A stretch of 64,000 bases of DNA from Ammoniphilus sp. YIM 78166 (GTDB lineage Bacteria > Bacillota > Bacilli > Aneurinibacillales > RAOX-1): NCBI RefSeq assembly GCF_004522215.1, contig NZ_SDLR01000005.1, forward strand, positions 29,086-93,085, read 5' to 3'. Numbering within the stretch: the first letter of the stretch is position 1; each line of letters begins with the position of its first letter. The translations under genes were made by a program, and so were the position numbers. The notes under the pieces are model-generated. The model ran no database searches. It had not been told where the DNA came from and saw only the letters and a program-made list of their open reading frames with translations. Of this stretch, positions 16,743 through 62,386 are shown piece by piece.

Positions 16743-17294
16743 TTCACACCAATCCCATCAAAAAATATATCTATTGTTAATTCACTTAAACTTTCCTATA
16801 TAGAAAATGCTTCCATTATGATTTATTTTAACAAAACTCAGATATTTTTTCGATTGTTTACTTTTATAGATAACTCATTTAAACAAATATAATTATTAAT
16901 GATTTGGAATGTTGGATTCTTTGCCTGTTTAAAAAGTAGGGCAAATCTAAAAAACCTATAAACAATAAGATATTATTGAGATGATGTACAATAGACAGAG
17001 GAAGTTACAAAGATATCTAATAAATCCATTCGATTAATAATTGAAGATACTATATTAATTATTGTGTAATTGCAACCATAAAAAGAAGATAGAGAAATAT
17101 TAATAACAATTTAAATAAGAAAATTATGATTAAGAAACAACTTTTGGTTCTAAAGAAGGTTTCATAATGTCTTGGAAATTAAGCGATACTAAAATAATCG
17201 ATAAAAAACAGGCTGTGTCTTTAACCAAAGACACAGCTCTTTTAAACCTCATTTACTTATGGTACGGTTCTCCCCTATTAATCCTTAATCTATC

Positions 17295-19772
17295 TCAATC
17301 CACCACATTAACCCTCAACACCCTCCCCGCCAAATCCACTTCCTCCCGATCCAACTCCACCTTCACCTTCCCTCGTCTTCTCTTCTCCCGCCATTCTATT
17401 AAATCTTCTTCCGTTTCTAACCTTAACTCCGCAATCTCCCTTGCACGGTCTAGCATATACTTCGATGTTAAGAGAAACGTGTACACACCATATCCCCCTA
17501 ACTCAATCGGCTCTTTTCTCTCTTCCCACTTACCAATAGTAAATCGAACATAGAGTTCACCATCTGTTCCCCTTCTCGCCGGTCTTTCATAGATCTCCCC
17601 ACGACGAACCACCTGCCAACTCTCTACTCTCCCCACCCTATGAATACCAGAATTTTGTTCACCAAATAAACGTCTCGATTGACACAACCCAATAAACTCA
17701 AGATTGCTTAGCATATGCTGCTTGTCCATTAGATTCTTGAGAGGCATATAATAGATTCGATTGTCTAAACAGATACCAAGTTGTTCCTTATCTCGCAATG
17801 ACCCAATCAACACGTTCTTCCCACTTAATTTATCCTGGTAGTACTCCTTCGTTCCACGAGGTCTTGTCGCTCTCTCATAGGCTTTTTCAGGACTATCTAA
17901 GATCAGCTCATCTAGAAACCGTTCCATTAGCCTAGTTGAGTTTGGTAGGAATGGTAACGCTCCGATGTTTACCTTCTTTATACTTCCATAGAATTGATGT
18001 TCCTCAAATTTTTCTTCATCAGGATAAGGAAACAAGACATACGCACCAAACATACTTCTCTCATACTCCCCGGATCGCCCCTCCTGATAGACGATGGCAT
18101 CCCGGTAGCGATGCATGGTGTTGATGTCATCTTCCTCTGGGCCCGGTGACTGATATCGTTCAAAGTATGGCGTCCCTTGGTAGGCAGGGTTTAATCGATA
18201 CTTGGCATCGAAGACATATTTATATACCACATCTGAATCTTGTTTTTTCAGTGTGAGTACATTGTCTGGCCTCTGAGGAAGCGTAGGAAAGTCTCGACTA
18301 TCTTCGGACGGCAGGGCATTATAAAACAGAGTAAAGGTCTCTCCATTATGAGGATTTCGGTAGGTAACGCTAGCTTTTTTCGATTTATCTAAGGTAATAA
18401 ATAAACCATGGCGGTGAACCCGAATGATGTCCTGCTTCAACAACTCATATTTTTCCTTTAATAAACTATGAATCTTCAGGAAGCACCAATATTCATATAA
18501 CTGAGCAATATCCTTCATGGACAAGCGGAATAAGTCCCCTTGAATAGACAGACCCTTCATCAAGATCAAGTAACTCCGATAAATATCTCGATAGCCGGGT
18601 GCCATTTGTAATACAAGGGTAACTGACATCTGCTTCATCTCACCTAAATCCGAAAGAAAGTCAAACCGTAATAGCCTTCGAATTTGTCCTCGCATCTGTT
18701 CAATTTGATTATGTAAAAGGGGATCCTGGGTTCGATGCTTATCGTTGAGCCGCTGCTGGATTTGTTTCAATTTCATCTCTATTCTCTCAAGTACCCATCG
18801 TACAAAACGATTCTCGTGGGTGTCGAAGTCTATCCTTCTTTTCATCTCGATCAACTTGGTTGGAGAATAGCCTTGTCCATTGATATTGAACAATCCATAT
18901 TGTTGATTCGGAACAAGTAAATGAGGCTTCTTAGCCAGTGCTGCTACATTTTCTTTTCCTGCCCGTTTTACACGATCGGCCCCCACCCATCTTGTTTCAG
19001 AAGCTAACCGATGATGGGGCGCTATTTGAAGTCTCTCAACTGAATGGACCAATTGTTGAAAGAGCTGCTTTAAGATAGCCAGAAACTCAGTTAAACTTTG
19101 GTTTCTAGTTTCCTTCAAGCCAGTTAGTTGATAGGTTTTTCGAAGAAAATCAAAGGACAAGTTATAGATCTGCTCATTAACGTCTTGGAGGATTAATTGG
19201 TAGTCCTTCTTATAATCCATCTTGGAAGGGAATATTTCCAATCGGATTTCAAGGGCTCTTTGGCCTTCCACAAGGATGATGAGCTCCGTATAACCGACTT
19301 CATTTTGAAAATTTAGGACTCCGGTGAGAAGGTCTTTTCCCAAGGGTTTGATCGCTTGACGCAGCAGCACATTGTCATGGTGGAAACCAATGAGTTTCTC
19401 ACTCTTACGTTGGATAACGAGCTGATAGGATTGATTTTCATAAAAGCACGGGAGGATTCTCTCATCACCAAGTTCTACTAATTGATAATGAATAGGAGAG
19501 AAAAGCTGGATCCTCTCTAGCTCAATGGGATAACCAGCCTTAACTACTTCGCATCTCGCCTCCACCCATTCCTGCGCTTTATCACGATGAAGCTGTAACG
19601 ACTCAACGGTTGGATGAAACGGCTTGCCTTGGATGTACAAATCAAAGAGATTTGTTTCGATCTTCAGGAGCTCGGTTTCCTGTTTAAGATAGCCAGAATG
19701 AAGTGAATCCATCTTCCTCAAACCTCCGAAGCATATAGGCGATTTTTCGGGCACTAAGCGGAAACGGAGCAT
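17295..19772 (-). CDS. McrC-like type IV restriction endonuclease subunit (DUF2357-like region plus PD-(D/E)xK nuclease, extra C-terminal domain)
   Basis: 825 aa; D...DAKYR (PD-(D/E)xK-like) motif in VYKYVFDAKYRLNP; overlaps/abuts McrB-like GTPase gene, the conserved McrBC arrangement; true start may be internal Met (19712) given 89-nt overlap. Confidence 0.65.
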   Translation of the reverse strand: MLRFRLVPEKSPICFGGLRKMDSLHSGYLKQETELLKIETNLFDLYIQGKPFHPTVESLQLHRDKAQEWVEARCEVVKAGYPIELERIQLFSPIHYQLVELGDERILPCFYENQSYQLVIQRKSEKLIGFHHDNVLLRQAIKPLGKDLLTGVLNFQNEVGYTELIILVEGQRALEIRLEIFPSKMDYKKDYQLILQDVNEQIYNLSFDFLRKTYQLTGLKETRNQSLTEFLAILKQLFQQLVHSVERLQIAPHHRLASETRWVGADRVKRAGKENVAALAKKPHLLVPNQQYGLFNINGQGYSPTKLIEMKRRIDFDTHENRFVRWVLERIEMKLKQIQQRLNDKHRTQDPLLHNQIEQMRGQIRRLLRFDFLSDLGEMKQMSVTLVLQMAPGYRDIYRSYLILMKGLSIQGDLFRLSMKDIAQLYEYWCFLKIHSLLKEKYELLKQDIIRVHRHGLFITLDKSKKASVTYRNPHNGETFTLFYNALPSEDSRDFPTLPQRPDNVLTLKKQDSDVVYKYVFDAKYRLNPAYQGTPYFERYQSPGPEEDDINTMHRYRDAIVYQEGRSGEYERSMFGAYVLFPYPDEEKFEEHQFYGSIKKVNIGALPFLPNSTRLMERFLDELILDSPEKAYERATRPRGTKEYYQDKLSGKNVLIGSLRDKEQLGICLDNRIYYMPLKNLMDKQHMLSNLEFIGLCQSRRLFGEQNSGIHRVGRVESWQVVRRGEIYERPARRGTDGELYVRFTIGKWEERKEPIELGGYGVYTFLLTSKYMLDRAREIAELRLETEEDLIEWREKRRRGKVKVELDREEVDLAGRVLRVNVVD

Positions 19773-22389
19773 CAGGCTTCACGTTGAAAAGCTCGGAAGA
19801 GTCACTCAACATTTCCTCAATGTTGGTTCGTTGTCCCGTTGCCAGCTGCATAAATTCGATCAACACTCTTTTTACTGAAGAACTACTCCCTTGAATACGA
19901 GGAAGTATTTTTTGCAGCCATTGTAGGTCAAAGGCTTCTTTTTCGCTCATTAAACCGAATTGTTCATTATAAACCATATAAAAACAGATCGAATCTCGCA
20001 CCCTAAATCCAACATGGGCATGAATCTTTTCTAGAATATTGTTCATTTTTACTAGTCTCTCTGTTGTACGCTTGATGAGCTCTGGATAATTTGAATACGC
20101 ATCTTGAAGCGTGAGATACTCTCGTTTAAGAAAAGAATTTGCCACTCTCATCGGTCTTTGTTCATTCATTTCTATAACATCACCAGGAAAAGAATTGAGA
20201 TTAATATAGTTAAATTCAATCGCTTGTGCCCGGTCCAAGACCTTTTTACTAAAGGGATGCGTGGTCTCATCCATATTAACGGTTCCAATCAAGTACACAT
20301 TATCAGGGATATAGACGCTGCCCAAGTTCTCTTCACCTGATAGTAGGGAATCTGTGAGAATACGTCTTCCTTCCCATCTCTCGGTTTCCATGACGCTTAA
20401 AATATCACTAAAATAATGCTCGACACGGGCTAAGTTCATCTCGTCCAGACAAATAAAATAGATTTGATTCTTATTATGTGGCTGTAAGGCATCCAACAGG
20501 ACTCGGGTTAACCTTCCTTCTCGAAAGTGACCTGATAAATCGCGATAACCAAGAAGATCCGTAGGATCACTCCAGTCTGGGCGAACCGGAATAAGTTCCA
20601 TCTTGGCACCCAGAGCTTCGGCAAATAGCTTAACCAGCTTTGTCTTTCCTGTCCCTGAGATCCCCGCTAAAATTACAAAAGGCTTCGTCTTGAGGGATAG
20701 GTAGAAGTTTTCTATCATGTTATCTGGATAGTAGAATCCTTTTTGCAGGATAAAGGATTTGATAAGGGACAACTGTTCATCGACTTTTACCACATGTTCC
20801 ATTGCTTCTACATCCTCTTTATAAAGATAGATATATAAATTGTCTACTTTTTCTATGTATCCTATTTCTTGAAGCCAATTCAGCATAAACTTTGCCCTAT
20901 TCGCTTGGGTGACGTCTCCCCATTCTGCATCCAGCTCCATAGCAGGAATAAATCGGGCTTGAAATTCGTTTTGGGTAAATTGCTGCAGCTCCTTAGCGAT
21001 GTTGGTTGCCAAGAGGATAACCCTTCTTAAATTACTTGAATCTTGGCTAGTAGTTTGTATCTGATTTTGTAGAATCCCCTTTTGGTTAGGCGTCAGGTTC
21101 CATATGTCTGAACTATCCTGATAAGAATGGCAGTATTGCTGTCCTAGTTCAGTTAATAAATAAGAAGACTTTTCAATTTGAATCAGTCCCAATTCCTCGA
21201 TGGCTCTTCCAATATGCTGGATTCGTTGTTTGGGATGCTTGACCTCATCACCCTTTTTAAGAATAAGAGCTTGCTGAGAAACCAATTCATCCATATCAAC
21301 CATCCTGGGCGATTGACTACCTAAATAGTGAAGGATGCCCTGGATATAATGAAGGTAAGCCATCGTATACTTAAAGCTAACGGGTTGGGCCCCCACCTGT
21401 TTTTGACTACCCTCAGCATAGAGTCGGTAGTTTTCCATCAATTCTCTTAAATCCGAAATGAGTCGATCTTCCTCGGGCATGTGTTCAAGGAAATACCGAA
21501 TATAAGCAACGGTAGATACCTGGTAATCACGTCCGATTCCGCTTGAAGTCAAGTGAATATTGTCATCTTTTTGAAACGACTCTAGTGATAATAAATCTCT
21601 CATTTCACGGACTTTTTGTTCTAAGTAATCGTAGCCTTCTTTTTTCCCTTTATCCTTGAGCGGAACAGTCACGCCTTGAGCTAAAGTTAGATAAACGGAA
21701 CTCATATCCTCTGAGAAAAGATAGACAATATATTCTCCATACTGCGTCGATTCCGTGATCCGTTTGTCCATAATCGCGATCCAGGGAATTGTAGCCCAGT
21801 TCCCTTGGCCTACTGACCCCTGAACCTTATAGTTCTGATCGATAAAAGACAAGGATTGCAGATCCTGTGGAATCTGCTGCCTTACTCTTATGCCTAAGGG
21901 ATGCTCTTTAAACGTTTCTGTTTTGGCTTGTAAATAATGAGATAGGATGTAGGTTAAATGATCTCTTAAAGAAAAAGATTTCGATTGACCAAAATAAGCC
22001 TCAATCTCATCCAAGGCATATTGTTTGAGCTCTTTTCGAACACTTGTACTGAGTTCTTCCAATACATCCGGCCGAAAACCGATCCAGCTTTTTTGAGAGT
22101 CTGTTATGAGTACCGAGGATAAGGCTTGGATAGGGGTCTGGAGTAGATTGATTACTCTAGTAGTTGTCATCTCCCTCCAACTGCTCGCCATGTTTTTAGG
22201 TGCCTCATCTATTGGAAGCCCTTGGTTTTCCCTATCTAAGTAAAACGAAACAAACCGATCTGCTATCCGATGAAGAGGGATTTGGGTCTCAGAAGTCCAC
22301 ATTTCCTCAAGTACGGACAAGATGAGCACCATCTTATATGATTTTTGTCTATTTTTAAAAATGCCTGCTAGTGAAAGTGGTAAAGCCAT
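19684..22389 (-). CDS. McrB-like AAA+ (AAA_5) GTPase subunit with ~560-aa N-terminal extension
   Basis: Walker A LAGISGTGKTKL, Walker B FICLDEMNLARVE, sensor region IGTVNMDETTHPFSKKVLDRAQ resembling McrB; 901 aa, the N-terminal ~560 aa lack recognisable motifs (putative DNA-recognition module). Confidence 0.8.
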   Translation of the reverse strand: MALPLSLAGIFKNRQKSYKMVLILSVLEEMWTSETQIPLHRIADRFVSFYLDRENQGLPIDEAPKNMASSWREMTTTRVINLLQTPIQALSSVLITDSQKSWIGFRPDVLEELSTSVRKELKQYALDEIEAYFGQSKSFSLRDHLTYILSHYLQAKTETFKEHPLGIRVRQQIPQDLQSLSFIDQNYKVQGSVGQGNWATIPWIAIMDKRITESTQYGEYIVYLFSEDMSSVYLTLAQGVTVPLKDKGKKEGYDYLEQKVREMRDLLSLESFQKDDNIHLTSSGIGRDYQVSTVAYIRYFLEHMPEEDRLISDLRELMENYRLYAEGSQKQVGAQPVSFKYTMAYLHYIQGILHYLGSQSPRMVDMDELVSQQALILKKGDEVKHPKQRIQHIGRAIEELGLIQIEKSSYLLTELGQQYCHSYQDSSDIWNLTPNQKGILQNQIQTTSQDSSNLRRVILLATNIAKELQQFTQNEFQARFIPAMELDAEWGDVTQANRAKFMLNWLQEIGYIEKVDNLYIYLYKEDVEAMEHVVKVDEQLSLIKSFILQKGFYYPDNMIENFYLSLKTKPFVILAGISGTGKTKLVKLFAEALGAKMELIPVRPDWSDPTDLLGYRDLSGHFREGRLTRVLLDALQPHNKNQIYFICLDEMNLARVEHYFSDILSVMETERWEGRRILTDSLLSGEENLGSVYIPDNVYLIGTVNMDETTHPFSKKVLDRAQAIEFNYINLNSFPGDVIEMNEQRPMRVANSFLKREYLTLQDAYSNYPELIKRTTERLVKMNNILEKIHAHVGFRVRDSICFYMVYNEQFGLMSEKEAFDLQWLQKILPRIQGSSSSVKRVLIEFMQLATGQRTNIEEMLSDSSELFNVKPDAPFPLSARKIAYMLRRFEEDGFTSFWLS

Positions 22390-22466
22390 GCTGTTCCTCC
22401 TGTGGTAGGAAAATGTTACTAATAGTATAGCAAAAGCCTGACAGGTATTGTCAGGCTAAGTTATTA

Positions 22467-23243
22467 CTATTTTCTTTTATAAGACCCGATCCCAACGACT
22501 TTTCGTTCCTTTACAACGTAGCGGCATTTCGGATAATTAGAACAACCATGAAAAATACCGTATTTTCCCGTTCTTTCTACTAACTCCCCCTCGCATCGAG
22601 GGCAAATGAGTTCGGCCACCTTTAAAGTTTTCACCTTCATGTTTTGGTGGATAGAAGTAACATGTTCTTTTCTCATTTTTCTATCGGTTTGATCCGCTCT
22701 TAAAATTCGTTGTTGGATGGTATGAATATCCTGTTGGTTTAAAACCACTTGCTGATACTTTAGGATAGTAGAAACGAGTTGTGAAGCATAAATCACATGG
22801 GTGTTTGACTCTACTTTCAGTGTCGCTTGATCGCCAAATACGATGATCGAATGATAAGGTACAGTAGGAAAATCGGAGAGGAGATCCTGTAACGCTTTGA
22901 TATGACCCTTGTTTTGCCAGACGGGGTTAAAAAGTTTTTCTTTTCTTTTATATATCGTCTGTGTCCAGTACTGTTGTTGGTCCTTCCCAAAGATCCATCC
23001 TTGATAATTTTTAGTTTCAATCACAAAGATGCCGTAGGATGACAGAATAATGTGATCAATTTGACTGGTCTTCCCTTCTGATATCTGGATCATGATATCG
23101 TGTACAGAAATATATTGATTCGGATCTAGGCTTTTGAGTTTCTTTTGAACTTTTTTCTCCCCAATGTAGCCCTTAACTTTTGGGCTTCTAAGTATAAAGC
23201 TAAATATACTAAAAGCAATTAATATAATAAAATACAGAGTCAT
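22467..23243 (-). CDS. NERD-domain protein with C-terminal topoisomerase-type C4 zinc finger
   Basis: 258 aa; N-terminal TM helix, NERD core (SQIDHIILSSYGIFVIETKNYQGWIFG; D..ExK), C-terminal CPRCEGELVERTGKYGIFHGCSNYPKC. Confidence 0.75.
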   Translation of the reverse strand: MTLYFIILIAFSIFSFILRSPKVKGYIGEKKVQKKLKSLDPNQYISVHDIMIQISEGKTSQIDHIILSSYGIFVIETKNYQGWIFGKDQQQYWTQTIYKRKEKLFNPVWQNKGHIKALQDLLSDFPTVPYHSIIVFGDQATLKVESNTHVIYASQLVSTILKYQQVVLNQQDIHTIQQRILRADQTDRKMRKEHVTSIHQNMKVKTLKVAELICPRCEGELVERTGKYGIFHGCSNYPKCRYVVKERKVVGIGSYKRK

Positions 23244-23281
23244 TTATATTCTCCTTCTTTAATGGTAGATTTAAGGTAAAA

Positions 23282-25732
23282 CTAGTGTGCCCTACCCTTC
23301 CTCTCAAAATGCTCATGAAGCCGATACTCACAGATCTCCTTTGTCCACCGGTAAGCCAATTCCTGATCTTCAGGCGCAATATCAAACTCAAATTTGAAGA
23401 TCCCATCCTTAAAGCTAACCAATCCCTTCGAGCTGCCGCTCCACTTCGTCATGGGCATATCGGCAATGAGATTGGCTACATCTTCTTTATCATACTCCCA
23501 CAAGGCCTTGGTTTTCTTATCGGAGAAGTCGATCCTCTTCCGGTATTCTTTTTCTGTCAGGTAGCGGTGGAAGAATGCTGCTGCTTCTTCTGCTGTGATT
23601 GGTTTCATCCAATGATCCACCCCTTTTTCCAACATATATAAAAGCACAACCATCTTATAGCTCTTGGCCATCCCTGTGCTTTCTACTTCTCTGAGCCAAG
23701 GCTCCATTCGCATAAACGCTTCCTTCTGTTGCTCAGGTAATTCACCAGCCCAATAAAGGAATCCCGGATATGATTTAAATTCCTGTCTGTACCCTTTTGC
23801 ATCCACATTTCCATGCAAATGAAGCTCCAAATAAGTGGGGCGCCTGCCCAGCTCTTGCTTTAATTCAAAATAAGCCTCTCGCAGTTTCTCTTTCCGCGGC
23901 TGTTTTTTCTTGGCCAATTCTTTTAATAGATTGATCGTTTGGATGTCCATTTCCCAATGACATGAATCAGGAATAACCGGTTCTACAAAAGCTTGTCTGG
24001 AAGGTTTGTCCACCACTGAATCGGTCTGGGTATGAAATAATCCAAGTTTCACATCCACATTTCGATAGTTTCCGATTAAATCAATGATGGTACAATGGTC
24101 TTTTCCTTCATATAGTCGAAGGCCTCGGCCAATCTGTTGGGTAAAGATGGTGAGGGATTCGGTCGGTCTGGTAAAGAGCAGCGTATCGACGCTTGGGATA
24201 TCTACCCCTTCATTGAATAAATCGACGGTAAAAATAATCTCCAAACTCCCTTGTTCCAGTCGACGTAAGGCCTCTCCACGGCTCATCTCTACTGTCTTAG
24301 AGTGGAGACTTAAAGCCTGAACTCCTTTTCTTTGAAAATAATCAGCCAAGAAATTAGCCTGCCGAATGGACGAGCAAAAGCCTAAAGTCCGGGTTTGTTT
24401 ATGCTTTTTCCAAGCTGAGAAAATGTTCTCCGCCATGTCTTCTCTTAATTGGACGGTTAAGAGCTCTTCTTCCGCATAACGATTTCCCAACCAGCTGATC
24501 TGGGAGTAGTCGGTTTCATCATAGATGCCAAAATAGTGGAAAGGGGAAAGCCAGCCCCGTTGAATCGCTTCGATAAAATGAAGCTGATAGGCCACATTTC
24601 CTCTGCAAATCGCATAGACGTCCTTCCCATCCATCCGGTCCGGTGTCGCCGTAATGCCAAGCAAGAAGGAAGGCTCAAAGTAATCCAGAATCCTCTGATA
24701 GGTCGGGGCAGCAGCGTGATGAAATTCATCGATAACAATGAGATCAAAGGCTTTGGGAGCAAAGCTTTCCCTATGCTGCTTCATCCCTAATGTATATATG
24801 GAGGCAAACACGAAATCCGCTTCTCCCTCTTTGCGACTTCCGTTATAGATCCCAACCGTTCGATTGGGCATCACGTGTTGAAATGATTTTTGGGCTTGAA
24901 AGAGAATTTCCTCTCGATGAGCCACAAATAATACACGATGAAACCGCTGCGCAAAGAACGCAGCAAGGTAAGTCTTTCCCAATCCAGTGGCCATAACTAC
25001 CATCGCGCTTTGGTAGCCTTCATCCAAGGTTTTTTCCAGTTCCTCTAAAGCTTCCTTCTGAGCAGGCCGAGGTGTTAGCGACAGATAACCGCTTGTCATT
25101 TCTCGGATCTCCGTAGGTTCCTTATCCGCTTTTCCTGAAAACATGATTTCCCTTGCTTCCCGCTCGGTCCACGTTCGAAACAGTTCAGGATGCTGTTGAT
25201 GATAGACTTCGTATTCCTTTTCGTAATGGAAAAGAGTTTCCCTGTTTACGGGGATCGTTTGATCAGCCAAGTATGCTTTCATAAATTGATCGAGAGCCGC
25301 ATCAAACGTAACCGGTTCCGCACCAGCTTGCATAGCTAAATTCCATTCCACCCCATAAGAAAGAGCGGAACGAGATAGATTCGAAGAACCTACGATAAGC
25401 AAACCTTCACCATTTTCAGCATGCATAAGATAAGCCTTCGGATGAAAGGAGATTCCTTTACTGCGCCATAATCTCACTTCAATAGAATCATCGATATCTA
25501 TCAATCTACGAAGACCTTCCGGCTGCGTGACAAACAAATAGTCTCCAGCGAGTATTTTTACCTCAGCTCCACGAAGGATAGCTTGCTTTAATCGACCTTC
25601 TAGGAGGCGAACTCCAGATTCCATTACAAAGGAAGTGATGAAGTAAATAGAAGAAGCTTGTTCCATGGCTTGAACTAAATCTTCTAGTAAATTCTCCGTT
25701 ATCAATTTTATTCTTGTCATTCTCCACCTCAA
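23282..25732 (-). CDS. PLD-like nuclease domain / SF2 (DEAD/DEAH-box-like) helicase / C-terminal DUF3427-like domain fusion protein
   Basis: 816 aa; HKD-like motif FHPKAYLMH...LIVGSSNLS near N-terminus; helicase motifs I (MATGLGKTYLAA), II (VIDEFHHAA), III (ITATPDR), VI (QQIGRGLRL); ~300-aa C-terminal extension. Confidence 0.8.
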   Translation of the reverse strand: MRWRMTRIKLITENLLEDLVQAMEQASSIYFITSFVMESGVRLLEGRLKQAILRGAEVKILAGDYLFVTQPEGLRRLIDIDDSIEVRLWRSKGISFHPKAYLMHAENGEGLLIVGSSNLSRSALSYGVEWNLAMQAGAEPVTFDAALDQFMKAYLADQTIPVNRETLFHYEKEYEVYHQQHPELFRTWTEREAREIMFSGKADKEPTEIREMTSGYLSLTPRPAQKEALEELEKTLDEGYQSAMVVMATGLGKTYLAAFFAQRFHRVLFVAHREEILFQAQKSFQHVMPNRTVGIYNGSRKEGEADFVFASIYTLGMKQHRESFAPKAFDLIVIDEFHHAAAPTYQRILDYFEPSFLLGITATPDRMDGKDVYAICRGNVAYQLHFIEAIQRGWLSPFHYFGIYDETDYSQISWLGNRYAEEELLTVQLREDMAENIFSAWKKHKQTRTLGFCSSIRQANFLADYFQRKGVQALSLHSKTVEMSRGEALRRLEQGSLEIIFTVDLFNEGVDIPSVDTLLFTRPTESLTIFTQQIGRGLRLYEGKDHCTIIDLIGNYRNVDVKLGLFHTQTDSVVDKPSRQAFVEPVIPDSCHWEMDIQTINLLKELAKKKQPRKEKLREAYFELKQELGRRPTYLELHLHGNVDAKGYRQEFKSYPGFLYWAGELPEQQKEAFMRMEPWLREVESTGMAKSYKMVVLLYMLEKGVDHWMKPITAEEAAAFFHRYLTEKEYRKRIDFSDKKTKALWEYDKEDVANLIADMPMTKWSGSSKGLVSFKDGIFKFEFDIAPEDQELAYRWTKEICEYRLHEHFERKGRAH

Positions 25733-25813
25733 GCGATTCCCAATTATTAACTCTCTTTAGTATAGCAAAAGCCTGACCGAATGGGTCAGGCTTCCGTCAT
25801 TTTTTAAGTTTTT

Positions 25814-26188
25814 CTAGGGATAAGGTACCAGATTCGGAATCGCCTTCCGTATTCCCCCACGAGGGTCGTCAATATCCCCCTTATAGCGGGGGATCAAATG
25901 AAAATGAAGATGCATCACGGTTTGCCCCCCATACTCTCCCACATTCACGCCAATGTTGAAACCATCCGGTTGATGAAGATCATCCAGCATCTTTTTCCCT
26001 TGCCGGATTAACTGGTGTATAGCAAGAATTTCCTCATCTGTGGCATCAAAATAAGCTGCTGCATGACGTTTAGGTACTATGAGTAGATGACCTTTTTGAA
26101 CAGGGAATTTGTCATAGAAAGCTTTAGCCCATTCATTTTCCATTACGATTAGTTCCTCAGGCAGTTCACAAAAAGGACAAGTCATCAT
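25814..26188 (-). CDS. HIT-family (histidine triad) nucleotide hydrolase
   Basis: 124 aa; HLHFHLIP histidine-triad motif. Confidence 0.85.
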   Translation of the reverse strand: MMTCPFCELPEELIVMENEWAKAFYDKFPVQKGHLLIVPKRHAAAYFDATDEEILAIHQLIRQGKKMLDDLHQPDGFNIGVNVGEYGGQTVMHLHFHLIPRYKGDIDDPRGGIRKAIPNLVPYP

Positions 26189-26520
26189 TTAACACTCCAT
26201 TGGATTATATTGATGTTTCGTTTTCGTACTTTATTTTAATAATAATACCGCTGTAGGAACGCTCAAACAACTAATTCTTGTCTTCCTCCACCTTAATTAA
26301 AAACAATCTTACCTGGAAGCCTCCCCTTTTTCCGTTTTCTCCTTTCGAAACACTTCTAACTCCTCGATTGAAAAGTCGTGATCCTCTGCCAGAGTATAGA
26401 TAATCGCAGTAGTTAAGCCAATTGTTCGATAGGTGTCACTGATCAGGATTCAATACCCTCATACTGAACTATTAAATCACTATATTTTACATCTCCCTGT
26501 CTCCAAGGTATAATATAATT

Positions 26521-26668
26521 AACAAGTTACAACAATAAAAAAGAGACCGACAGTGCTGTAACACTACCGGTCACGTACAACAGACGTTCCCCAACAGGGG
26601 TCGGCTCAATGCTGAAGGAATAGACCACCGAGTTGTCAGCTCACGGGTGGTCTATTTCTTTTTGGTCA
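26521..26668 (+). ncRNA. putative cis-antisense antitoxin sRNA of a type I TA locus (RatA/SR4-like arrangement)
   Basis: near-consensus promoter TTTACA-17-TATAAT (26486-26514), then ~145 nt, ending in GC-rich hairpin atagaccaccgagttgtcagctcacgggtggtctat (26626-26661) followed by TTCTTTTT; 3' end overlaps the 3' end of the convergent toxin ORF. Confidence 0.4.
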
Positions 26669-26762
26669 TGTATGTCAGAATGGCAATGACGACACCAACG
26701 AATGTTAATGTGAACATGCCTAAGTTCAATGCTAAATCTATTGCATCGTATACTGACACCAT
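26652..26762 (-). CDS. BsrG/TxpA-like type I toxin, small hydrophobic peptide (36 aa)
   Basis: MVSVYDAIDLALNLGMFTLTFVGVVIAILTYMTKKK: M-[ST]-V-Y-[DE]-[AS]-L start, single TM helix, poly-Lys tail as in B. subtilis BsrG/TxpA family; strong RBS AAAGGGGGTG 7 nt upstream. Confidence 0.55.
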   Translation of the reverse strand: MVSVYDAIDLALNLGMFTLTFVGVVIAILTYMTKKK

Positions 26763-26872
26763 TTTCTCACCCCCTTTCTAACAGGGATGAGCCGACCACC
26801 CATGAGGAGCCGATTCTATTGTACTTGTTTATTATATCATGATGTCACAGAAGCAAACATACGTTTTGTTTG

Positions 26873-28816
26873 TTAATACTCCTCCCCCTCTTCCGCCACC
26901 ATGGGTAACGGCTTAAAAAACTCATTCTGCTTATACTGATAGCTGCTTCTACCAAATCTCTCTCTTAAATACTCAGCCAGAGCCGGATCGGTACAAAACA
27001 CAAAGCAGCCTTTTTGCCCGCGGGTCATGAGGGTTCGATAGGTGTTGCGGATGATCTCGTCTGCTAGGCGATGAGCCTCTACCAGATCTTCTTTCTGGAG
27101 TTTTTTCAGACCTTTCAAAGAAGAGTCGGTTTTGGCCCTTTTCGTAGGGTCGGTGATCACCTGCCCATTTACATAACGCATATCATCACCAATAATGACG
27201 CCAACGTAATCAAATTCAAGTCCTTGGCATGTATGAATACAACCAACTTCCTGAACCGATTGTTCGTCAATGGCCCAGGTTTCAGAGTTTGCGAGATTCC
27301 AGCTCATCTTAAATTGATAATCTGGAAGCACGATGTCATACACGTTGGGATTGTTCTTTCCTTCTTTGAGCCAATCCCAGCAATAGCCGGCCACCATGCG
27401 AGACTTATTGTTCTTGAGATTCCGTTTTTGGATTTCTCTTCGGAGTTCGTTTGGATCATCATACACTCGAAAATCATAGTGGCTCCCGATCCAGTCGGTA
27501 TTCGCAGTAGGACGGATTTGCAGCACATCATCCAGCCAAGCGAGGTATCCGTCGGATCCATTACAGCGGAACTGGGAGTCCAGGTTCATGATGTTAATGA
27601 CGGCACCATGTTGTTTCGCGTACTTTTGAATGTCGGCTAGACTGCCGGCATCTTTTAAAGTGACCCGCTGTCGCTCATCGATAAAGAAGATGGAAAGCTT
27701 TGCCGCTTCGATAATCTCCTTCGTTTGGTTTTCTCCTAGGTTTTGAAACATCCCCGACTTCTCATTGAGACGATGGGCTTCGTCCACGATGAGGGCATCA
27801 AACTCGTCGCGAATAGCGTTGATGTAGCTGCCAGACCCCTTAAACAGGTTATCAATATGTCCCTTGCGAAAGTCTTGCTTCAGCTTCGTTGCGTACACGT
27901 TTCGAGGGGCTGCATTTTTAGTGACGTACTGACAGACCATATTTTGTTTAGTGAGTTCGACGAGAAGATTTACTGCTAAAACGGATTTACCCGTCCCCGG
28001 ACCTCCTTGTACGATCAAGACCTGCTTCGTGTGGGTTCGCAAGGCTTCTCGCGCCATGAGGCGAGCCTCCTCATAGACCACTTTCTGGTCATCGATCATG
28101 ACAAACTCTTTATTTCCTTGCAGCATGCGATTCAACGCATCCTGCAAGGATTTAGACGGACGGATACGTCCACTCTCTATTTTATAGAGGTTTTCTTTGT
28201 TATCCCCTATCTTTATGTAGCGCTTAATGAAATCACGCAGATCCTTCGCTTGTCCCTTTACAAAGACAGGCGCCTGTTCCAAGTAATACTCATACATCGG
28301 ATCAGTTAAAGGATCCTCTTCCCCTTGATCTAGATAGTTATGAAGGTAGGCACAAGGATAAAAAGCCATGTCCTCGTTTTGCGCATTTTCGTTATAGTCT
28401 CGTATTAAAGACGCATAGGACCACGCTTGATAGGAAGGATGCGTCGTCTCCATTTTTCCGCGATTCATCGCCGTCTTAACAATGGCTTCTTTTCCCCGAA
28501 CGGCTTCCACCGTCCCCCATTGCTTGAGTTCCACGATGACTACGTTATTTTTCTGTTCGTCTTTACCGGAAATCAGAAAGTCGACTCGCTTCGAGGTATG
28601 GGGAATACGAAACTCAATCGCCACTCCCGAATCTTGGGGAATGGCTTCATCCCCTAACACCCGGTACATATATTGCATCGAAGTGTCCCAAGCCCGAACT
28701 TCTCTTTCGTTAATACGGCCTATTTTCGTGTTGTAGTTCCGGACGATATTGTTGACCAGTTCATCATGAAACACATCTTCCAAAAACTCCGTTTTTGTTG
28801 CTTCATATACAATCAT
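26873..28816 (-). CDS. DUF2075-family ATPase/helicase-like protein with N-terminal PD-(D/E)xK-like nuclease domain
   Basis: 647 aa; N-terminal RVDFLISGKDEQKNNVVIVELKQW (D...ELK); Walker A VLIVQGGPGTGKSVLA, Walker B ALIVDEAHRL; translationally adjacent (16-nt gap) to upstream MazG-like gene. Confidence 0.75.
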   Translation of the reverse strand: MIVYEATKTEFLEDVFHDELVNNIVRNYNTKIGRINEREVRAWDTSMQYMYRVLGDEAIPQDSGVAIEFRIPHTSKRVDFLISGKDEQKNNVVIVELKQWGTVEAVRGKEAIVKTAMNRGKMETTHPSYQAWSYASLIRDYNENAQNEDMAFYPCAYLHNYLDQGEEDPLTDPMYEYYLEQAPVFVKGQAKDLRDFIKRYIKIGDNKENLYKIESGRIRPSKSLQDALNRMLQGNKEFVMIDDQKVVYEEARLMAREALRTHTKQVLIVQGGPGTGKSVLAVNLLVELTKQNMVCQYVTKNAAPRNVYATKLKQDFRKGHIDNLFKGSGSYINAIRDEFDALIVDEAHRLNEKSGMFQNLGENQTKEIIEAAKLSIFFIDERQRVTLKDAGSLADIQKYAKQHGAVINIMNLDSQFRCNGSDGYLAWLDDVLQIRPTANTDWIGSHYDFRVYDDPNELRREIQKRNLKNNKSRMVAGYCWDWLKEGKNNPNVYDIVLPDYQFKMSWNLANSETWAIDEQSVQEVGCIHTCQGLEFDYVGVIIGDDMRYVNGQVITDPTKRAKTDSSLKGLKKLQKEDLVEAHRLADEIIRNTYRTLMTRGQKGCFVFCTDPALAEYLRERFGRSSYQYKQNEFFKPLPMVAEEGEEY

Positions 28817-28831
28817 GGCCGAACCTTCCCT

Positions 28832-29161
28832 TTAGAGCTCAGTGTATTTTTTATTCGATCCGAAGGCTTTCCCCACGGGATACTTCTGCTTATTCTTTTC
28901 GATCTTGCTTTGGATCGCTTCCTGGATATCGATATCCAAATCATGAGCAAGGTATAACGAATAAATTAGGACATCGGCTAGTTCTTCTTTAATCTGTGGA
29001 AGGTTCTGTTCGATTGCGGTTTGGCTATCCTTCCACTGGAAGTTCTCTAGCAATTCACTCGCTTCTAGTGAGATCGAGATCGCAAGATCCTTGGGAGTGT
29101 GGAATTGCTCCCAGTTTCTTTCTTTGCGAAAGGCTAATAATTCATGAATGAGTTCCTGCAC
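28832..29161 (-). CDS. MazG-like nucleotide pyrophosphohydrolase (small all-alpha NTP-PPase)
   Basis: 109 aa; EASELLENFQW...LADVLIY..LA motif typical of MazG/YpjD-type NTP pyrophosphohydrolases. Confidence 0.8.
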   Translation of the reverse strand: MQELIHELLAFRKERNWEQFHTPKDLAISISLEASELLENFQWKDSQTAIEQNLPQIKEELADVLIYSLYLAHDLDIDIQEAIQSKIEKNKQKYPVGKAFGSNKKYTEL

Positions 29162-29328
29162 AGGTTTTCCTCCAGAGGTGTTGTTATGAGATCTATTATA
29201 CAGGAGTAAGTTATATTTTTCTAAAATCTACCTTTATCCGTTATCATCCGTTCTTCTCTCAGTACACGACAATTCCTTAGTGATAACACATCTGGATGAC
29301 TGGGATCCGCTAAAGGTTAGAGCAGACT

Positions 29329-29376
29329 CGCTAAACGGCAAAGCGTCCCCTACCTGGGGGGTATCCCCGAAGCGTT
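29329..29376 (+). repeat. three-hairpin repeat, copy R7 (internally deleted variant)
   Basis: cgctaaacggcaaagcg-tcccctacctggggggtatccccgaagcg. Confidence 0.6.
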
Positions 29377-32579: not shown

Positions 32580-33050
32580 AACCTTAGGTTTGGAATCCCG
32601 CTGCGATTCCGGCGGAATCTCGTTTAAGAACGGAGTGTCGTGCGATTTCTCCTGCTTTAATGTCCAAGAGGAGGATATGGCCGAACTGCAGCCACAATTC
32701 CATCTCTTCTCATCCAAGCGGGATTTACTAGAGACTCCGTTCGATATCCACGGATTGCAAAGCCTTACCGCAGTGCGCTTATCCTAGCCGCCAGGGATTC
32801 CATCCTTTGGCCTCTTCGTACTGATGTCCTCGATTAAAAGTCGAGTGTTCTACCAGAAATCGCGCCCTAGCGATTGGGGAATCGAACCCCTTCACGGATT
32901 CTTTCCGATCCGGCATGCACAGGATACCGTCGCATATGATGCGCGGCACTGTGGGACGTTACAGAAATCCCAGCCTCGTTACAGCCGTCCGAATAAGAAT
33001 CATAATCTATGATAAAACGTCAATCGACGTCTACCACCAACCCAAATAGA
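32580..33050 (-). ncRNA. candidate structured non-coding RNA / leader between rtcB and SPFH gene, containing tRNA-like T-arm
   Basis: ~470 bp without credible ORF; minus-strand GGGGTTCGATTCCCC (T-stem/loop mimic), adjacent hairpins cgcat-cat-atgcg, ccggat-cggaaaga-atccgg, aatcgc-tagggc-gcgatt, ggaatc-ccgctgc-gattcc. Confidence 0.3.
32896..32948. repeat. 53-bp repeat shared with 42176-42228
   Basis: ggattctttccgatccggcatgcacaggatacc[g/t]tcgcata[t/c]gatgcgcggca; variable positions lie in a hairpin loop. Confidence 0.7.
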
Positions 33051-43641: not shown

Positions 43642-43699
43642 ATATCACGAGACTGCGTGAGGAAAAAGAATGAAAAGGGGATTTGATGCGACCCTCTAT

Positions 43700-43900
43700 T
43701 TTACATCCTCCCTATCTCCAAGGTATAATATAATTAACTAGTCACAACAATAAAAAAGAGACCGACAGTGCTCGAACACTACCGGTCACGTACAACAGAC
43801 GTTCCCCAATTTGGGGGCGGCTCAGTTTAGGAAGAAATAGACCACAGAGTTGTCAGCTCACGGGTGGTCTATTTCTTTTTGGTCATGTATGTCCGTTAAT
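43700..43900. repeat. decayed second copy of the type I toxin/antisense-sRNA module (promoter and terminator retained, toxin ORF truncated)
   Basis: TTTACA-17-TATAAT and hairpin+U-tract conserved; toxin coding region retains only ...TYMTKKK end and fuses into DUF2075 remnant. Confidence 0.7.
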
Positions 43901-43904
43901 GTGA

Positions 43905-44090
43905 ACACGCCTAAATTCATGATGTTAATGACGGCCCCGTTTTGTTTGGCGTACTTCTGAATGTCAGCTAGACTACCGGTATCTTTTAACCTCACATGCT
44001 GCTTCAATGACTTCTTTGGTTTGGTTTTCTCCCAGGTTTTGAAACATCCCTGATTTTTCGTTGACTTCATATACAATCATGGCCGACCCT
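43905..44090 (-). pseudogene. DUF2075-gene remnant (multiple internal deletions)
   Basis: retains segments homologous to 27590-27660, 27700-27760 and 28790-28816 of the intact copy. Confidence 0.6.
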
Positions 44091-59742: not shown

Positions 59743-59749
59743 CAAAATA

Positions 59750-59860
59750 TCGGTCAGGTACAACAGACGTGCCCCAATCTGGGGGCTGCTCAGTTTAGAA
59801 AGAAATAGACCACGGAGTTTTTGGCTCATAGGTGGTCAATTCCTTTTTGGTCATAAATGT
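59750..59860. repeat. decayed third copy of type I toxin/sRNA module (promoter lost, hairpin degenerate)
   Basis: cggtcaggtacaacagacgtgcccc...agaaatagaccacggagttt aligns with sRNA body/terminator of copy 1. Confidence 0.55.
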
Positions 59861-60005
59861 GAGAAGGGCAATGCTAAAATCTAATACCCTTCCCCCTCTT
59901 TCACACCCTAGGTAACGGGTCTGCTTATACTCTCTCTTAAATATTCAGCAATTTACTACCTAAGAAGGGGCAAAAGCTTACACGTTATCCGCCTAAGTTT
60001 GGATG

Positions 60006-61175: not shown

Positions 61176-62386
61176 CCATTGATCGCTTTAAACCGTCCTG
61201 TACTTTCTTTATTCTAGACCGCTTAAGGAACTCCTCCGTTATGATATAAAAGAAGAAAGAGTATGTATATCTCCATGATAAAGGGCTTGATCGAACCAAT
61301 GAGCTAACGTCTCCCCGAAAAATGAAGACATAACCGCTATAACAACCAGGGACAGGTAACGCCTTAGGAATGATAGGAATAAGCTTGACCTTGCAACTCT
61401 CTCATTCGCGATAAAGACTCCTCATATACTACTTCCACCTGGTTCCCCCTTTTCCTACTCTCAGGTATATTAAACGCGATCGTAAAGCACTATCGTGCTT
61501 TACTCAACTGAAGGACTGTCCCTCATCATAAGGTAAGGTGCGAAGCCTTTGCCGTTGACGGTTAAGAAGGTGATAACAATAGGAGCGACTGAAAAAAGAC
61601 AGGAGCTTGTAAAACTGATTCAGCATCTATCTGACAAGATATATTCATGGTTCATAGCTTATTGTCTTATCTAAAGAGTAGTAGGAAAAACCGAGTCTTT
61701 CCATGGAGGGTTTACGTAGCCCCTATCTTACATTTCCCTATCTCCCCTATTTATAATGAAATAACTATTCAAGACAATAAAAAGTTCGATATTAACGATA
61801 TGGTCCATCCCCTTAATGTAAACCTTTGTTCATTCTCCGATAGTTGGCCGTAGCGGTATTAACGGAAGAATAGGCTAACCCCTGATAGATTCTTGGTTTC
61901 ATCCCCTCAGCGAGGACAAGAGTGGGCATTTCAATGAACAGGCAGCTGTAGAAATTACGGCTAAATACCCCAATATGCACGGGTCCCCGATCCATATTGG
62001 CGATTCTAAACTTATGGGAATTGAGGATATATAATATCGACTGCTCAAAGAGTCTATGAGAAATGAGGTTAACTTTGTCCCAGGCGGCTTGCTCGGTTCC
62101 CCAACCGGTCATATCCGACTTACCTATGGCCAAGCAGAGACTGAATCCATTCCGGAAGGAATTGTACGATCAAGGCAAGCAGTACTTAAACTTTAAAACG
62201 CACCCAGCCTATCCTTCCTCATATGCAACAACAGGTTGGCAAAAAGCATCGTTCTCTCTTATTTATTCCTAACTAAAACGAAACTCTTTATGCAAATATA
62301 AATAGAGAAAAAGGCAACTGTAGTGACAGTTGCCTTTTTTAGGTCTATTTTTTAGGTCTTATGACACGCCTTATATTCTTACATCC

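Follow-up and report, generated by a model that had tools for sequence, protein, structure and literature searches.

A probable bsrG/SR4-type type I toxin–antitoxin module and its decayed copies in Ammoniphilus sp. YIM 78166

The locus at 26486–26839 of the window, the whole 64-kb stretch of Ammoniphilus sp. YIM 78166 DNA that was analysed, is very probably a type I toxin–antitoxin (TA) module of the bsrG/SR4 type (copy 1), with copies 2–4 as deletion remnants (probability roughly 0.85). This assignment is carried by the homology of both the mRNA and the encoded peptide, by the conservation of an antisense promoter and terminator throughout the family, and by a structural switch of the mRNA seen in silico. 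The core of a preliminary description of this DNA was thus right, and copy 1 is a previously unstudied, ordinary member of a known family. The features of copy 1 and of the two genes adjoining it are as follows.

26486..26514, plus strand: antisense sRNA promoter, TTTACA-17-TATAAT, 11 of 12 consensus matches
26521..26666, plus strand: predicted SR4-like antisense sRNA, ~146 nt
26616..26666, plus strand: sRNA terminator, hairpin at ~26616–26659 followed by UCUUUUU
26536..26572, minus strand: intrinsic terminator of the toxin mRNA, 12-bp stem (26572..26545) followed by UCUUUUUU
26536..26823, minus strand: toxin mRNA, bsrG homologue, ~288 nt
26652..26762, minus strand: toxin ORF, 36 aa, MVSVYDAIDLALNLGMFTLTFVGVVIAILTYMTKKK
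26767..26774, minus strand: Shine-Dalgarno sequence GGGGGUGA
26831..26839, minus strand: toxin promoter read from the sequence, extended −10 TGATATAAT with a weak −35
26873–28816, minus strand: DUF2075/Schlafen-group-3 helicase gene (Pfam), immediately upstream of the toxin and co-oriented with it
28832–29161, minus strand: MazG-like gene (Pfam), upstream of the DUF2075 gene

The toxin peptide and its mRNA

The 36-aa ORF to which the preliminary description had assigned a strong ribosome-binding site is present at 26652–26762, with AGAAAGGGGGTGAGAAAATG upstream as a strong Shine-Dalgarno sequence. The ORF had also been said to be missing from the supplied track of open reading frames, which may be so, yet the peptide is annotated in RefSeq as a 'putative holin-like toxin' of Ammoniphilus sp. 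YIM 78166 (WP_134702983.1). With a GRAVY value of 1.14 and a best 19-residue hydropathy window of 2.22, the peptide is consistent with one transmembrane helix followed by a C-terminal KKK tail. Comparison with toxin families, as proposed in the preliminary description, gave a match to Pfam PF16935 (Hol_Tox), the family named 'putative holin-like toxin' by NCBI, with 28.5 bits against a gathering threshold of 23.3 and with peptide residues 3–36 aligned to profile positions 2–34 of 34. The peptide fell below the cut-offs of the PepG1/SprG1 model NF041589 (20.2 bits against 70, E 3e-4) and the ComI model NF052249 (15.7 bits against 55), and any kinship to these two appears distant at best. A tblastn search of the peptide against phages returned marginal S. 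aureus phage matches alone (E 0.007–0.7). Near-identical peptides are encoded in two other Ammoniphilus genomes and by a second intact copy, a Y31F paralogue (WP_240689305.1), in the YIM 78166 genome.

On the minus strand, the Rfam model BsrG (RF01412) matches 26548–26823 with 106.4 bits against a gathering score of 55 (E 3.4e-24), and the covariance model is covered in full (positions 1–259 of 259). Transcription of the toxin mRNA is predicted to start near 26823, which is where the Rfam model begins. The extended −10 at 26839..26831 is preferred as the toxin promoter because it is consistent with the mRNA 5' end in Rfam and with the layout in SPbeta, and its position relative to the 5' end UACAAUA is the same as that of the SPbeta bsrG promoter. 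A minus-strand promoter returned by the scanner, ATGATA-16-TAGAAT (26840..26813), was rejected for the toxin, as transcription from it would begin inside the conserved mRNA 5' end.

The −35 of the toxin promoter is poor and three of the four copies within the window are wrecks, features that would be expected were copy 1 an intact-looking but silent relic, decaying like its neighbours, with one or both promoters inactive or a peptide that is no longer toxic. Such a fate is improbable for copy 1: the toxin promoter of bsrG is likewise normally weak (PMC3834814), all functional elements are intact and located at family-consensus positions, and the peptide persists nearly unchanged in the other Ammoniphilus genomes and in the second copy of the same genome.

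The ~288-nt toxin mRNA has a minimum free energy of −112.6 kcal/mol (z = −6.4) and is predicted to form a long helix P1 (nt 1–35 with ~215–247), stem-loops SL1–SL3 and a terminator, SL4. This predicted fold matches the structure of bsrG determined by probing (PMC3834814), with which it shares the P1 pairing of the 5' and 3' regions, a Shine-Dalgarno sequence held in a 4-bp GC helix of SL1, and a terminator located 1 nt after P1. When nt 158–288, the part bound by the sRNA, were masked in constrained folding, the Shine-Dalgarno helix lengthened in silico from 4 bp in the free mRNA to 9 bp. Binding of SR4 is known to extend the helix that sequesters the bsrG Shine-Dalgarno sequence (PMC3834814), and the modelled extension matches this second mode of action of SR4.

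The antisense RNA and its conservation in Bacillales

The near-consensus plus-strand promoter claimed in the preliminary description was confirmed at 26486–26514, as was the hairpin and U-tract said to end the plus-strand unit. Only four sites of at least this promoter's quality occur on both strands of the 64-kb window, and the sRNA promoters of copies 1 and 2 account for two of these. The sRNA of copy 1 (sRNA-1) is complementary to the final ~131 nt of the toxin mRNA (26536–26666), folds with −51.9 kcal/mol (z = −5.1), and forms a perfect duplex of −273 kcal/mol with the mRNA of copy 1. The stem of its terminator spans the toxin stop codon, with the U-tract being the complement of the KKK codons. 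This terminator was missed by a simple terminator scanner because the loop of the hairpin is long.

The arrangement had originally been likened to both the txpA/RatA and bsrG/SR4 loci. The bsrG/SR4 comparison holds, given the 106.4-bit match and the same antisense geometry, and the two sequences read side by side show the layout of copy 1 to be that of the SPbeta bsrG/SR4 locus; a RatA-like RNA was not detected. The proposed Rfam/infernal scan found BsrG on the toxin strand but returned no RatA- or SR4-like match on the plus strand. Between 26300 and 27000, no Rfam family besides BsrG matched either strand at E values up to 10, with inclusion of the RatA model in the release unconfirmed. Because the plus strand is matched by no Rfam family, the SR4 homology of the plus-strand RNA rests on its position and complementarity.

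Homologous loci were gathered with a degenerate DNA motif covering the 5' UTR together with the Shine-Dalgarno helix; since the scan required this helix, its conservation does not count as independent evidence. At least 118 homologous loci in Bacillales have the antisense promoter at the same position and share an antisense terminator that covaries. Antisense promoters with at least 10 of 12 consensus matches were found at 60 of 111 loci, compared to 2 for the sense strand and 6 in shuffles, each out of 111, and these promoters cluster 47–53 nt beyond the mRNA terminator, the modal position at which that of copy 1 also sits. The antisense terminator lies over the stop codon in 115 of the 121 family loci with an ORF. 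It covaries among 109 family members, with 158 G-U/U-G pairs against 18 A-C/C-A on the sRNA strand, a strand-specific G-U excess which shows that selection acts on the hairpin in the antisense strand. The bsrG scaffold was present in Bacillus, Brevibacillus, Tumebacillus, Sporosarcina, Paenisporosarcina, Psychrobacillus, Aneurinibacillus, Ammoniphilus and other genera. Most loci found through the shared 5'-UTR motif encode peptides of 26–29 aa, presumably BsrE/H-like, that align with the ends of the window peptide at 43–48% identity, and the window peptide itself falls in a long class of 34–40 aa. The scan shows the bsrG scaffold, along with an antisense promoter at a conserved position and a covarying antisense terminator, to be widespread in Bacillales; a 2019 review limited txpA/bsrG-like systems to a few species of Bacillus and a single Paenibacillus (PMC6562991).

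These observations bear on a different role for the peptide, as a phage-type holin or lysis accessory, with the plus-strand hairpin acting simply as a bidirectional terminator and no antitoxin RNA being made. The Pfam name Hol_Tox and the homologues annotated in the Brevibacillus phages Osiris and Jimmer point in this direction, but a holin function is very improbable here. No endolysin, portal or other phage genes were found near the copy 1 toxin, which is adjoined by restriction and defence genes. Moreover, the toxin transcript continues ~115 nt beyond the hairpin and, like bsrG, ends at a terminator of its own, the near-consensus promoter sits exactly at the position typical of the family, and the G-U excess marks the hairpin as a feature of the antisense strand.

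In the TA module favoured here, the weak extended −10 promoter would drive the highly structured minus-strand mRNA of ~288 nt for a single-pass membrane peptide of 36 aa that is presumably toxic, and the much stronger convergent promoter would drive the antisense RNA of ~146 nt; we infer that both RNAs are transcribed. By homology with SR4, pairing probably begins at the loop of the sRNA terminator, and the resulting duplex would be a substrate of RNase III, leading to destabilization of the toxin mRNA. Pairing would also unzip P1, allowing the freed GCUCA to pair with UGAG beside the Shine-Dalgarno sequence. In this way the sequestering helix may grow from 4 bp to ~9 bp and translation be blocked.

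The repeated cassette and its decayed copies

Copy 1 is set in a chromosomal defence island, with no prophage, where its neighbours encode an HIT protein, a PLD-helicase resembling a type IV restriction enzyme, a NERD protein, McrBC-like proteins, and the DUF2075 and MazG-like proteins. No tRNA genes occur in the 64-kb window. Apart from the module, the repeated cassette spans 26873..29161 on the minus strand, for which PADLOC gives AbiO/Nhi-like matches. Among the family loci, a DUF2075 neighbour is shared only by an Ammoniphilus MAG (L065) and Lysinibacillus contaminans (L073). From this setting, we infer that the likely role of the module is to stabilize the adjacent MazG-like/DUF2075 defence cassette or the island. 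The decayed copies within the window comprise the following features.

43694..43893, plus strand: copy 2, complete orphan sRNA gene, 91% identical to 26480–26676
43858..44076, minus strand: toxin wreck of copy 2, a chimeric 72-aa ORF in which a DUF2075 fragment is fused to toxin fragments (MNLGVFTLT...)
59748..59873, plus strand: copy 3, 80% identical to 26565–26688
59882..59949, plus strand: remnant of a DUF2075 gene 3' end at copy 3, 60 of 68 aligned bases identical to 26874–26977
61720..61783, plus strand: fourth remnant, 77% identical to 43693–43756 (E 4e-6)

The preliminary description had counted three copies of the module, two of them decayed. Copies 2 and 3 are indeed toxin-less, and a fourth remnant that it had missed was added at 61720–61783. 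All three are deletion remnants of paralogous cassettes in which the toxin has been destroyed and the sRNA gene wholly or partly kept, and all four copies are parts of a MazG-like–DUF2075–TA cassette that is present repeatedly and is undergoing decay through deletions. Retention of the sRNA promoter and/or terminator, claimed for both copies 2 and 3, applies in full to copy 2, whereas copy 3 lacks a promoter and its terminator stem is mutated.

Copy 2 has a promoter with 11 of 12 consensus matches (TTTACA-18-TATAAT, 43700–43729), followed by an sRNA body at ~43736–43884 and the terminator, and retains an intact complement of the toxin-mRNA terminator (43760–43787). Its sRNA folds with z = −4.7, and its BsrG score is weak at 20.7 bits, under the gathering score of 55. 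Relative to copy 1 it has undergone two deletions, of 27 nt and 856 nt, the larger with a 4-nt TTCA overlap at 43916–43919, and fragments homologous to the DUF2075/MazG-like cassette follow at 43916–44464. Copy 3 consists of the 3' two-thirds of the sRNA and a C-terminal toxin fragment (IALLTFMTKKE); no sRNA promoter was found in a search of this region and no Rfam match was obtained there. The DUF2075 remnant at copy 3 has a local alignment score of 82 against a shuffle maximum of 54. The end of copy 3 coincides precisely with a dispersed repeat, and the core of this repeat overlaps the terminal inverted repeat of an insertion sequence (IS) elsewhere in the window. The fourth remnant holds a degenerate sRNA promoter (CTTACA...TATAAT) and only the 5' end of the sRNA.

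It had further been suggested that the module itself marks or mediates recombination joints. Every copy does lie at the edge of duplicated or rearranged DNA, and the core of the 81-nt repeat abutting copy 3 recurs ~100 nt past the copy 1 cassette. However, homology between the copies runs well into the DUF2075 and MazG-like genes, so that the module does not bound the larger repeat but is carried within it as cargo. Ordinary deletions account for the breaks, with 4-nt microhomology at one of them, and the break at copy 3 coincides with the dispersed repeat and with no feature of the module. Neither a recombinase nor a site-like repeat belongs to the module, and most of the 118 homologous loci have no association with rearrangement. 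The suggestion is already weakly refuted and is scarcely credible; the copies are instead parts of a larger cassette that has decayed by internal deletions.

A function for copy 2 as a maintained orphan SR4-like antitoxin, acting in trans on intact paralogous toxin mRNAs and representing a recurrent, selected end state across Bacillales, is possible but doubtful. Its targets could be copy 1 and the second intact copy in the genome. Copy 2 keeps its promoter, terminator and recognition loop, and its sRNA forms a near-continuous duplex with the copy 1 mRNA (−230 kcal/mol, compared to −273 for sRNA-1). In other genomes, 26 extra 3'-part copies were present in 18 of the 8-kb loci, and of 11 toxin-less remnants examined among these, ~8 (hand count) have both an antisense promoter of at least 9/12 close to the usual position and a terminator-like hairpin. 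Neutral recent decay explains copy 2 equally well because its sRNA region is barely better conserved than its flanks, with 91% identity to copy 1 against 83–89% for the flanking pseudogene fragments. Were the antitoxin function real, the orphan sRNA would buffer or disarm intact toxins, a form of anti-addiction.

The series of copies forms a natural test bed for cross-talk between orphan antitoxin RNAs and paralogous toxins, and the one intact and three decayed copies illustrate the expected order of addiction-module decay, in which the toxin is lost first. The locus should be annotated as a bsrG/SR4-type type I TA module with an unannotated antisense sRNA gene, and two neighbouring intergenic 'repeats' as wrecks of such a module. 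Current understanding of type I systems is unchanged by these results.

Comparison with known type I systems

The closest characterized system is bsrG/SR4 of the B. subtilis prophage SPbeta (RF01412; Jahn et al. 2012; Jahn & Brantl 2013, PMC3834814), to which the window mRNA is homologous over the whole covariance model. Both mRNAs have the same P1/SL1–SL3/SL4 architecture, with a 4-bp helix over the Shine-Dalgarno sequence, and in both ~125–130 nt at the 3' end of the mRNA are overlapped by a convergent antisense RNA. In each locus a strong promoter serves the sRNA and a weak one the toxin, the sRNA terminator covers the toxin stop codon along with the KKK codons, and the extension of the Shine-Dalgarno helix upon sRNA binding is predicted for the window mRNA as well. 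The peptides differ more, with 26% identity between the 38 aa of BsrG and the 36 aa of the window peptide. The window sRNA, at ~146 nt compared to ~180 nt for SR4, is without the ~50-nt non-complementary 5' part of SR4. Furthermore, bsrG resides in a prophage, whereas the window locus is chromosomal and lies within a defence island of an Ammoniphilus host (Paenibacillaceae).

The long-class window peptide also differs from the 26–29-aa peptides that are presumably BsrE/H-like. The bsrE/SR5 and bsrH/as-bsrH systems of B. subtilis are built on the RNA scaffold of bsrG/SR4, with which they presumably share an ancestor (PMC6562991). SR5 does not extend the Shine-Dalgarno helix (PMC6562991), in contrast to the bsrG-type switch of the window mRNA in silico.

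The closest DNA and peptide relatives are 'putative holin-like toxin' loci of Brevibacillus, Ammoniphilus resinae and Aneurinibacillus, none of which has been characterized so far and which have the same architecture including the antisense promoter. Those of Brevibacillus are located on plasmid p1821L02, a B. borstelensis plasmid and the phages Osiris and Jimmer, with the p1821L02 copy showing 69% peptide identity to the window peptide. An A. resinae locus (L038) and locus L100 have 78–80% DNA identity to the window locus. Unlike the window locus, these relatives are found on plasmids, in phages or in other chromosomal contexts. More broadly, txpA/RatA of the skin element, where RatA acts solely via RNase III-dependent decay (PMC6562991), and sprG1/SprF1 of S. 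aureus belong to the same class as the window locus, pairing a small transmembrane toxin with a cis-antisense RNA that overlaps its 3' end.

The intact module and its predicted RNAs

Copy 1, the intact module at 26486-26839, is composed of a predicted minus-strand toxin mRNA and a predicted plus-strand antisense sRNA. The 36-aa ORF with a strong ribosome-binding site and the convergent transcription unit, with a near-consensus promoter and a hairpin plus U-tract, that had been proposed in the preliminary description were all located.

Features of copy 1 and its upstream genes (window positions)
26486-26514, plus: antisense sRNA promoter TTTACA-17-TATAAT, 11/12 matches
26616-26659, plus: hairpin of the sRNA terminator (from the fold), followed by UCUUUUU
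26572..26545, minus: separate toxin mRNA terminator with T-tract, ~115 nt past the stop codon
26652-26762, minus: toxin ORF, 36 aa, with Shine-Dalgarno sequence AGAAAGGGGGUGAGAAAAUG upstream
26839..26831, minus: predicted toxin promoter, extended -10 TGATATAAT, ~8 nt ahead of the mRNA 5' end
26873-28816, minus: DUF2075/Schlafen-group-3 helicase gene, directly upstream of the toxin
28832-29161, minus: MazG-like gene, upstream of the toxin

The peptide is strongly hydrophobic by hydropathy analysis (GRAVY 1.14, best 19-residue window 2.22), carries KKK at its C-terminus and is present in RefSeq as WP_134702983.1, 'putative holin-like toxin'. Its 647-aa neighbour is WP_134702984.1, 'DUF2075 domain-containing protein', and the contig encodes, outside the window, a second paralogue of 36 aa (Y31F, WP_240689305.1). 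The expected similarity to holin-like toxins was borne out by Pfam PF16935 Hol_Tox, which the peptide passed with 28.5 bits against a threshold of 23.3. Matches to NCBIfam PepG1 and ComI were below threshold only, and a PepG1 or ComI equivalog was ruled out on these scores.

Covariance-model scanning of the entire window gave a single above-threshold match, Rfam RF01412 BsrG at 26548-26823 on the minus strand, which covered the whole model and scored 106.4 bits (gathering score 55; E 3.4e-24). A permissive Rfam scan of both strands of 26300-27000 returned nothing besides BsrG, and no RatA-like RNA was detected there. Of the two layouts to which the locus had been likened, bsrG/SR4 is upheld by Rfam match, layout and fold, and txpA/RatA is not; the search for RatA/SR4-like RNAs recovered the toxin mRNA and no other family. 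Only four sites in the window score 11/12 as promoters on either strand, two of them being the copy 1 sRNA promoter and its copy at 43700. The toxin promoter combines its extended -10 with a poor -35, and the sRNA promoter is much nearer consensus. This asymmetry matches that reported for B. subtilis, where the SR4 promoter is stronger than the bsrG promoter (PMC3834814).

The predicted 288-nt toxin mRNA has a minimum free energy of -112.6 kcal/mol (z = -6.4). Its 5' nucleotides 1-35 pair with ~215-247 to form a long helix, P1, from which three stem-loops extend; one unpaired nucleotide separates P1 from the terminator, and the Shine-Dalgarno sequence lies within a 4-bp GC helix. This predicted fold is that of the experimentally probed bsrG structure (Jahn and Brantl, PMC3834814). 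The predicted 146-nt sRNA forms four hairpins (z = -5.1) and is a perfect complement of mRNA nt 158-288. The sRNA-bound state was mimicked by barring nt 158-288 from intramolecular pairing and refolding the mRNA, upon which the freed CUCAUCCCU paired with GGGGGUGAG and the Shine-Dalgarno helix grew from 4 to 9 bp. The predicted growth resembles the second function of SR4, shown by experiment, in which the helix over the Shine-Dalgarno sequence is extended from 4 to 8 bp (PMC3834814). For the copy 1 module itself, we infer transcription, toxicity of the peptide and dependence on RNase III.

Decayed copies and the repeated cassette

Three decayed paralogues of copy 1 lie in the window, the last of them absent from the preliminary description.

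Decayed copies and adjoining remnants
43694-43893: copy 2, 91% identical to 26480-26676
within 43858-44465: chimeric 72-aa ORF of DUF2075 and toxin fragments, product of the large deletion in copy 2
44067-44318 and 44319-44465: 83-aa and 48-aa ORFs of a split MazG-like pseudogene by copy 2
59748-59873: copy 3, 80% identical to 26565-26688
59882-59949: DUF2075 3'-end remnant after copy 3, identical at 60/68 aligned positions (local score 82; highest score among shuffles, 54)
61720-61783: fourth remnant, 77% identical to 43693-43756, keeping a degenerate form of the sRNA promoter, CTTACA...TATAAT, and ~30 nt from the sRNA 5' end

Copies 2 and 3 had been described as retaining sRNA parts after loss of the toxin, which holds for the toxin in both and for the sRNA signals in copy 2. 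Copy 2 keeps its sRNA promoter (TTTACA-18-TATAAT, 11/12), sRNA body and sRNA terminator, together with the complement of the toxin-mRNA terminator. Two deletions wrecked its toxin gene. One is internal and took out 27 nt; the other, of 856 nt, begins in the ORF, which has lost its N-terminal half, and runs through the 5' UTR and the toxin promoter into DUF2075, which has lost its 3' third. The junction of this larger deletion has a 4-nt overlap, TTCA (43916-43919), and Rfam BsrG scores only 20.7 bits at copy 2. Copy 3 consists of a toxin C-terminal fragment with a damaged terminator stem, and no promoter was found at it. The fourth remnant, a 5' sRNA part, lies downstream of copy 3, a 3' sRNA part, and this order suggests cassettes that once stood in tandem rather than one split gene.

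Orphan sRNA genes of the SR4 type might be retained to serve as antitoxins in trans. The copy 2 sRNA is computed to pair almost without interruption with the copy 1 mRNA (-230 kcal/mol vs -273 for the cognate sRNA), and by hand count ~8/11 toxin-less remnants elsewhere combine a terminator-like hairpin with an antisense promoter close to the usual site. Remnants of this kind lie in L023, L032, L055, L065, L074, L086, L103 and L111, 8-kb loci from other Bacillales genomes. The copy 2 sRNA region is scarcely more conserved, at 91% identity, than the adjacent pseudogene fragments at 83-89%. Recent neutral decay accounts for the data equally well.

Homology between the copies runs far past the TA module: 27585-27658, 27705-27768 and 28792-29202 match 43916-44464 beyond copy 2, where the MazG-like gene is frameshifted and DUF2075 mostly deleted. 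Because this homology reaches into both genes, the repeated unit is a MazG-like–DUF2075–TA cassette. Judged from sequence, the TA module is cargo carried by this cassette and does not delimit it. On its left side, copy 3 breaks off exactly at an 81-nt dispersed repeat (59664-59744). The proposal that the module marks or mediates recombination joints is not supported: the homology exceeds the module, the copy 3 break coincides with a dispersed repeat, and nothing was seen to indicate that rearrangement is caused by the module. A GNAT/SCP2 acetyltransferase stretch is also duplicated (45407-46114 vs 60364-61148, 93-94% identical). By copy 3 it belongs to an intact 389-aa gene (60006-61175), and near copy 2, where every ORF overlapping it is shorter than 120 aa, it looks like a pseudogene.

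A related Ammoniphilus MAG contig (L065, 1819-2456 and 4155-4373) repeats the pattern of the window, with one intact module next to a DUF2075 stub and a second, sRNA-only copy. In Lysinibacillus contaminans (L073, 53-1223), a bsrG-family module lies directly upstream of the C-terminal half of a DUF2075 gene (60% protein identity), and the TA-DUF2075 link thus recurs.

Repeats and insertion sequence
5092-5177, 7695-7727 (minus), 9290-9323, 11859-11939, 12190-12275, 29345-29372, 59664-59747: 81-nt dispersed repeat, ~30-nt core GTCCCCTACCTGAGGGGGTATCCCCG, alternative hairpins possible
10379-11909: IS element, DDE_Tnp_1 gene 10780-11757 (minus), 53-nt imperfect inverted repeats on both sides
11938-12192 and 18038-18292: 255-nt segment by the IS, duplicated in the McrC-like gene region
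32894-32948 and 42164-42218: 55-nt direct repeat, 96% identity, 9.3 kb apart

Besides the one at copy 3, another dispersed-repeat copy lies past the copy 1 cassette, ~100 nt away, and the repeat core overlaps the terminal inverted repeat of the DDE-transposase IS. None of the 118 loci retrieved from other genomes contains the repeat; an IS end, a MITE and a REP-like element are candidates for its nature.

Copy 1 is situated at one margin of a defence island (14868-29161) that takes in the MazG-like gene and the DUF2075/SLFN-g3 gene, the latter with AbiO/Nhi-like matches. The module may plausibly have a stabilising role of the addiction type. Membership of a phage lysis cassette was rejected from the gene neighbourhood.

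Other genes of the defence island
14868-16742: GmrSD-like protein
17295-19772: McrC-like DUF2357+PDDEXK protein
19684-22389: McrB-like MrcB_N+AAA_5 protein (PADLOC PDC-M26A/B)
22467-23243: NERD+Zn-ribbon protein
23282-25732: PLD+helicase protein, like type IV methyl-directed restriction enzymes
25814-26188: HIT protein, ThsC-like match

The family across Bacillales

A degenerate motif over the conserved 5' UTR and Shine-Dalgarno helix matched once in the window (0 expected by chance) and in at least 118 stretches of GTDB species genomes; the motif itself imposes this helix, so its conservation is not an independent test. Almost all matches are in Bacillales, including Bacillus, Brevibacillus, Tumebacillus, Sporosarcina, Paenisporosarcina, Psychrobacillus, Rummeliibacillus, Aneurinibacillus, Ammoniphilus resinae and others. 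Several of the stretches contain modules in tandem; L008, L025, L030, L061 and L070 have two or three intact ones in a row.

Among the matches listed, a small ORF is correctly placed at 121/133 motif sites, 92 being of 20-29 aa (nearly all 26-29) and 29 of 32-47 aa, with KKK or HKK at the C-terminus of most. Among these same matches, an mRNA terminator is present in 113 of the 121 sites with an ORF, and an antisense-strand terminator over the stop codon in 115 of them. An antisense promoter of at least 10/12 just past the mRNA terminator was found at 60/111 distinct loci among the matches listed, against 2/111 on the sense strand and 6/111 in shuffled sequence, its -35 clustering 47-53 nt past the terminator (copy 1, +49). 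In the alignment of 109 distinct antisense terminators among the matches listed, the stem covaries (for example GC 66 / AU 40 at one pair, and AU 55 / GC 20 / UA 18 / CG 4 at another), and G-U/U-G outnumber A-C/C-A on the sRNA strand by 158 to 18 (57 to 7 in the core stem by hand tally). Since a G-U pair becomes an A-C mismatch in the complementary strand, this excess shows selection for the hairpin on the antisense strand.

Comparison with known systems

The SPbeta bsrG/SR4 locus was retrieved and read side by side with copy 1. On the 5' side both have a -10 element ~8 nt ahead of the 5' end (UACAAUA/UACAUAA for the pair of loci), followed by a conserved 5' segment, then GCUCAUCCC...GGGG(G)UG around the Shine-Dalgarno sequence. 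Both ORFs end in lysines, with the stop codon within a hairpin, and are followed by the 3' half of the long helix, the terminator and a convergent promoter just past it. Copy 1 is a bsrG/SR4 family member by every feature testable here, an uncharacterised member of a well-known kind whose peptide was already annotated. It has long been known that type I modules occur in tandem or multiple copies and that their toxins are overlooked by gene callers (Fozo et al. 2010, PMC2887945). A 2019 review described a common RNA scaffold for bsrG and bsrE, and restricted txpA/bsrG-like systems to a small number of Bacillus species plus one Paenibacillus (PMC6562991); the motif scan shows that this scaffold is far more widespread than stated there.
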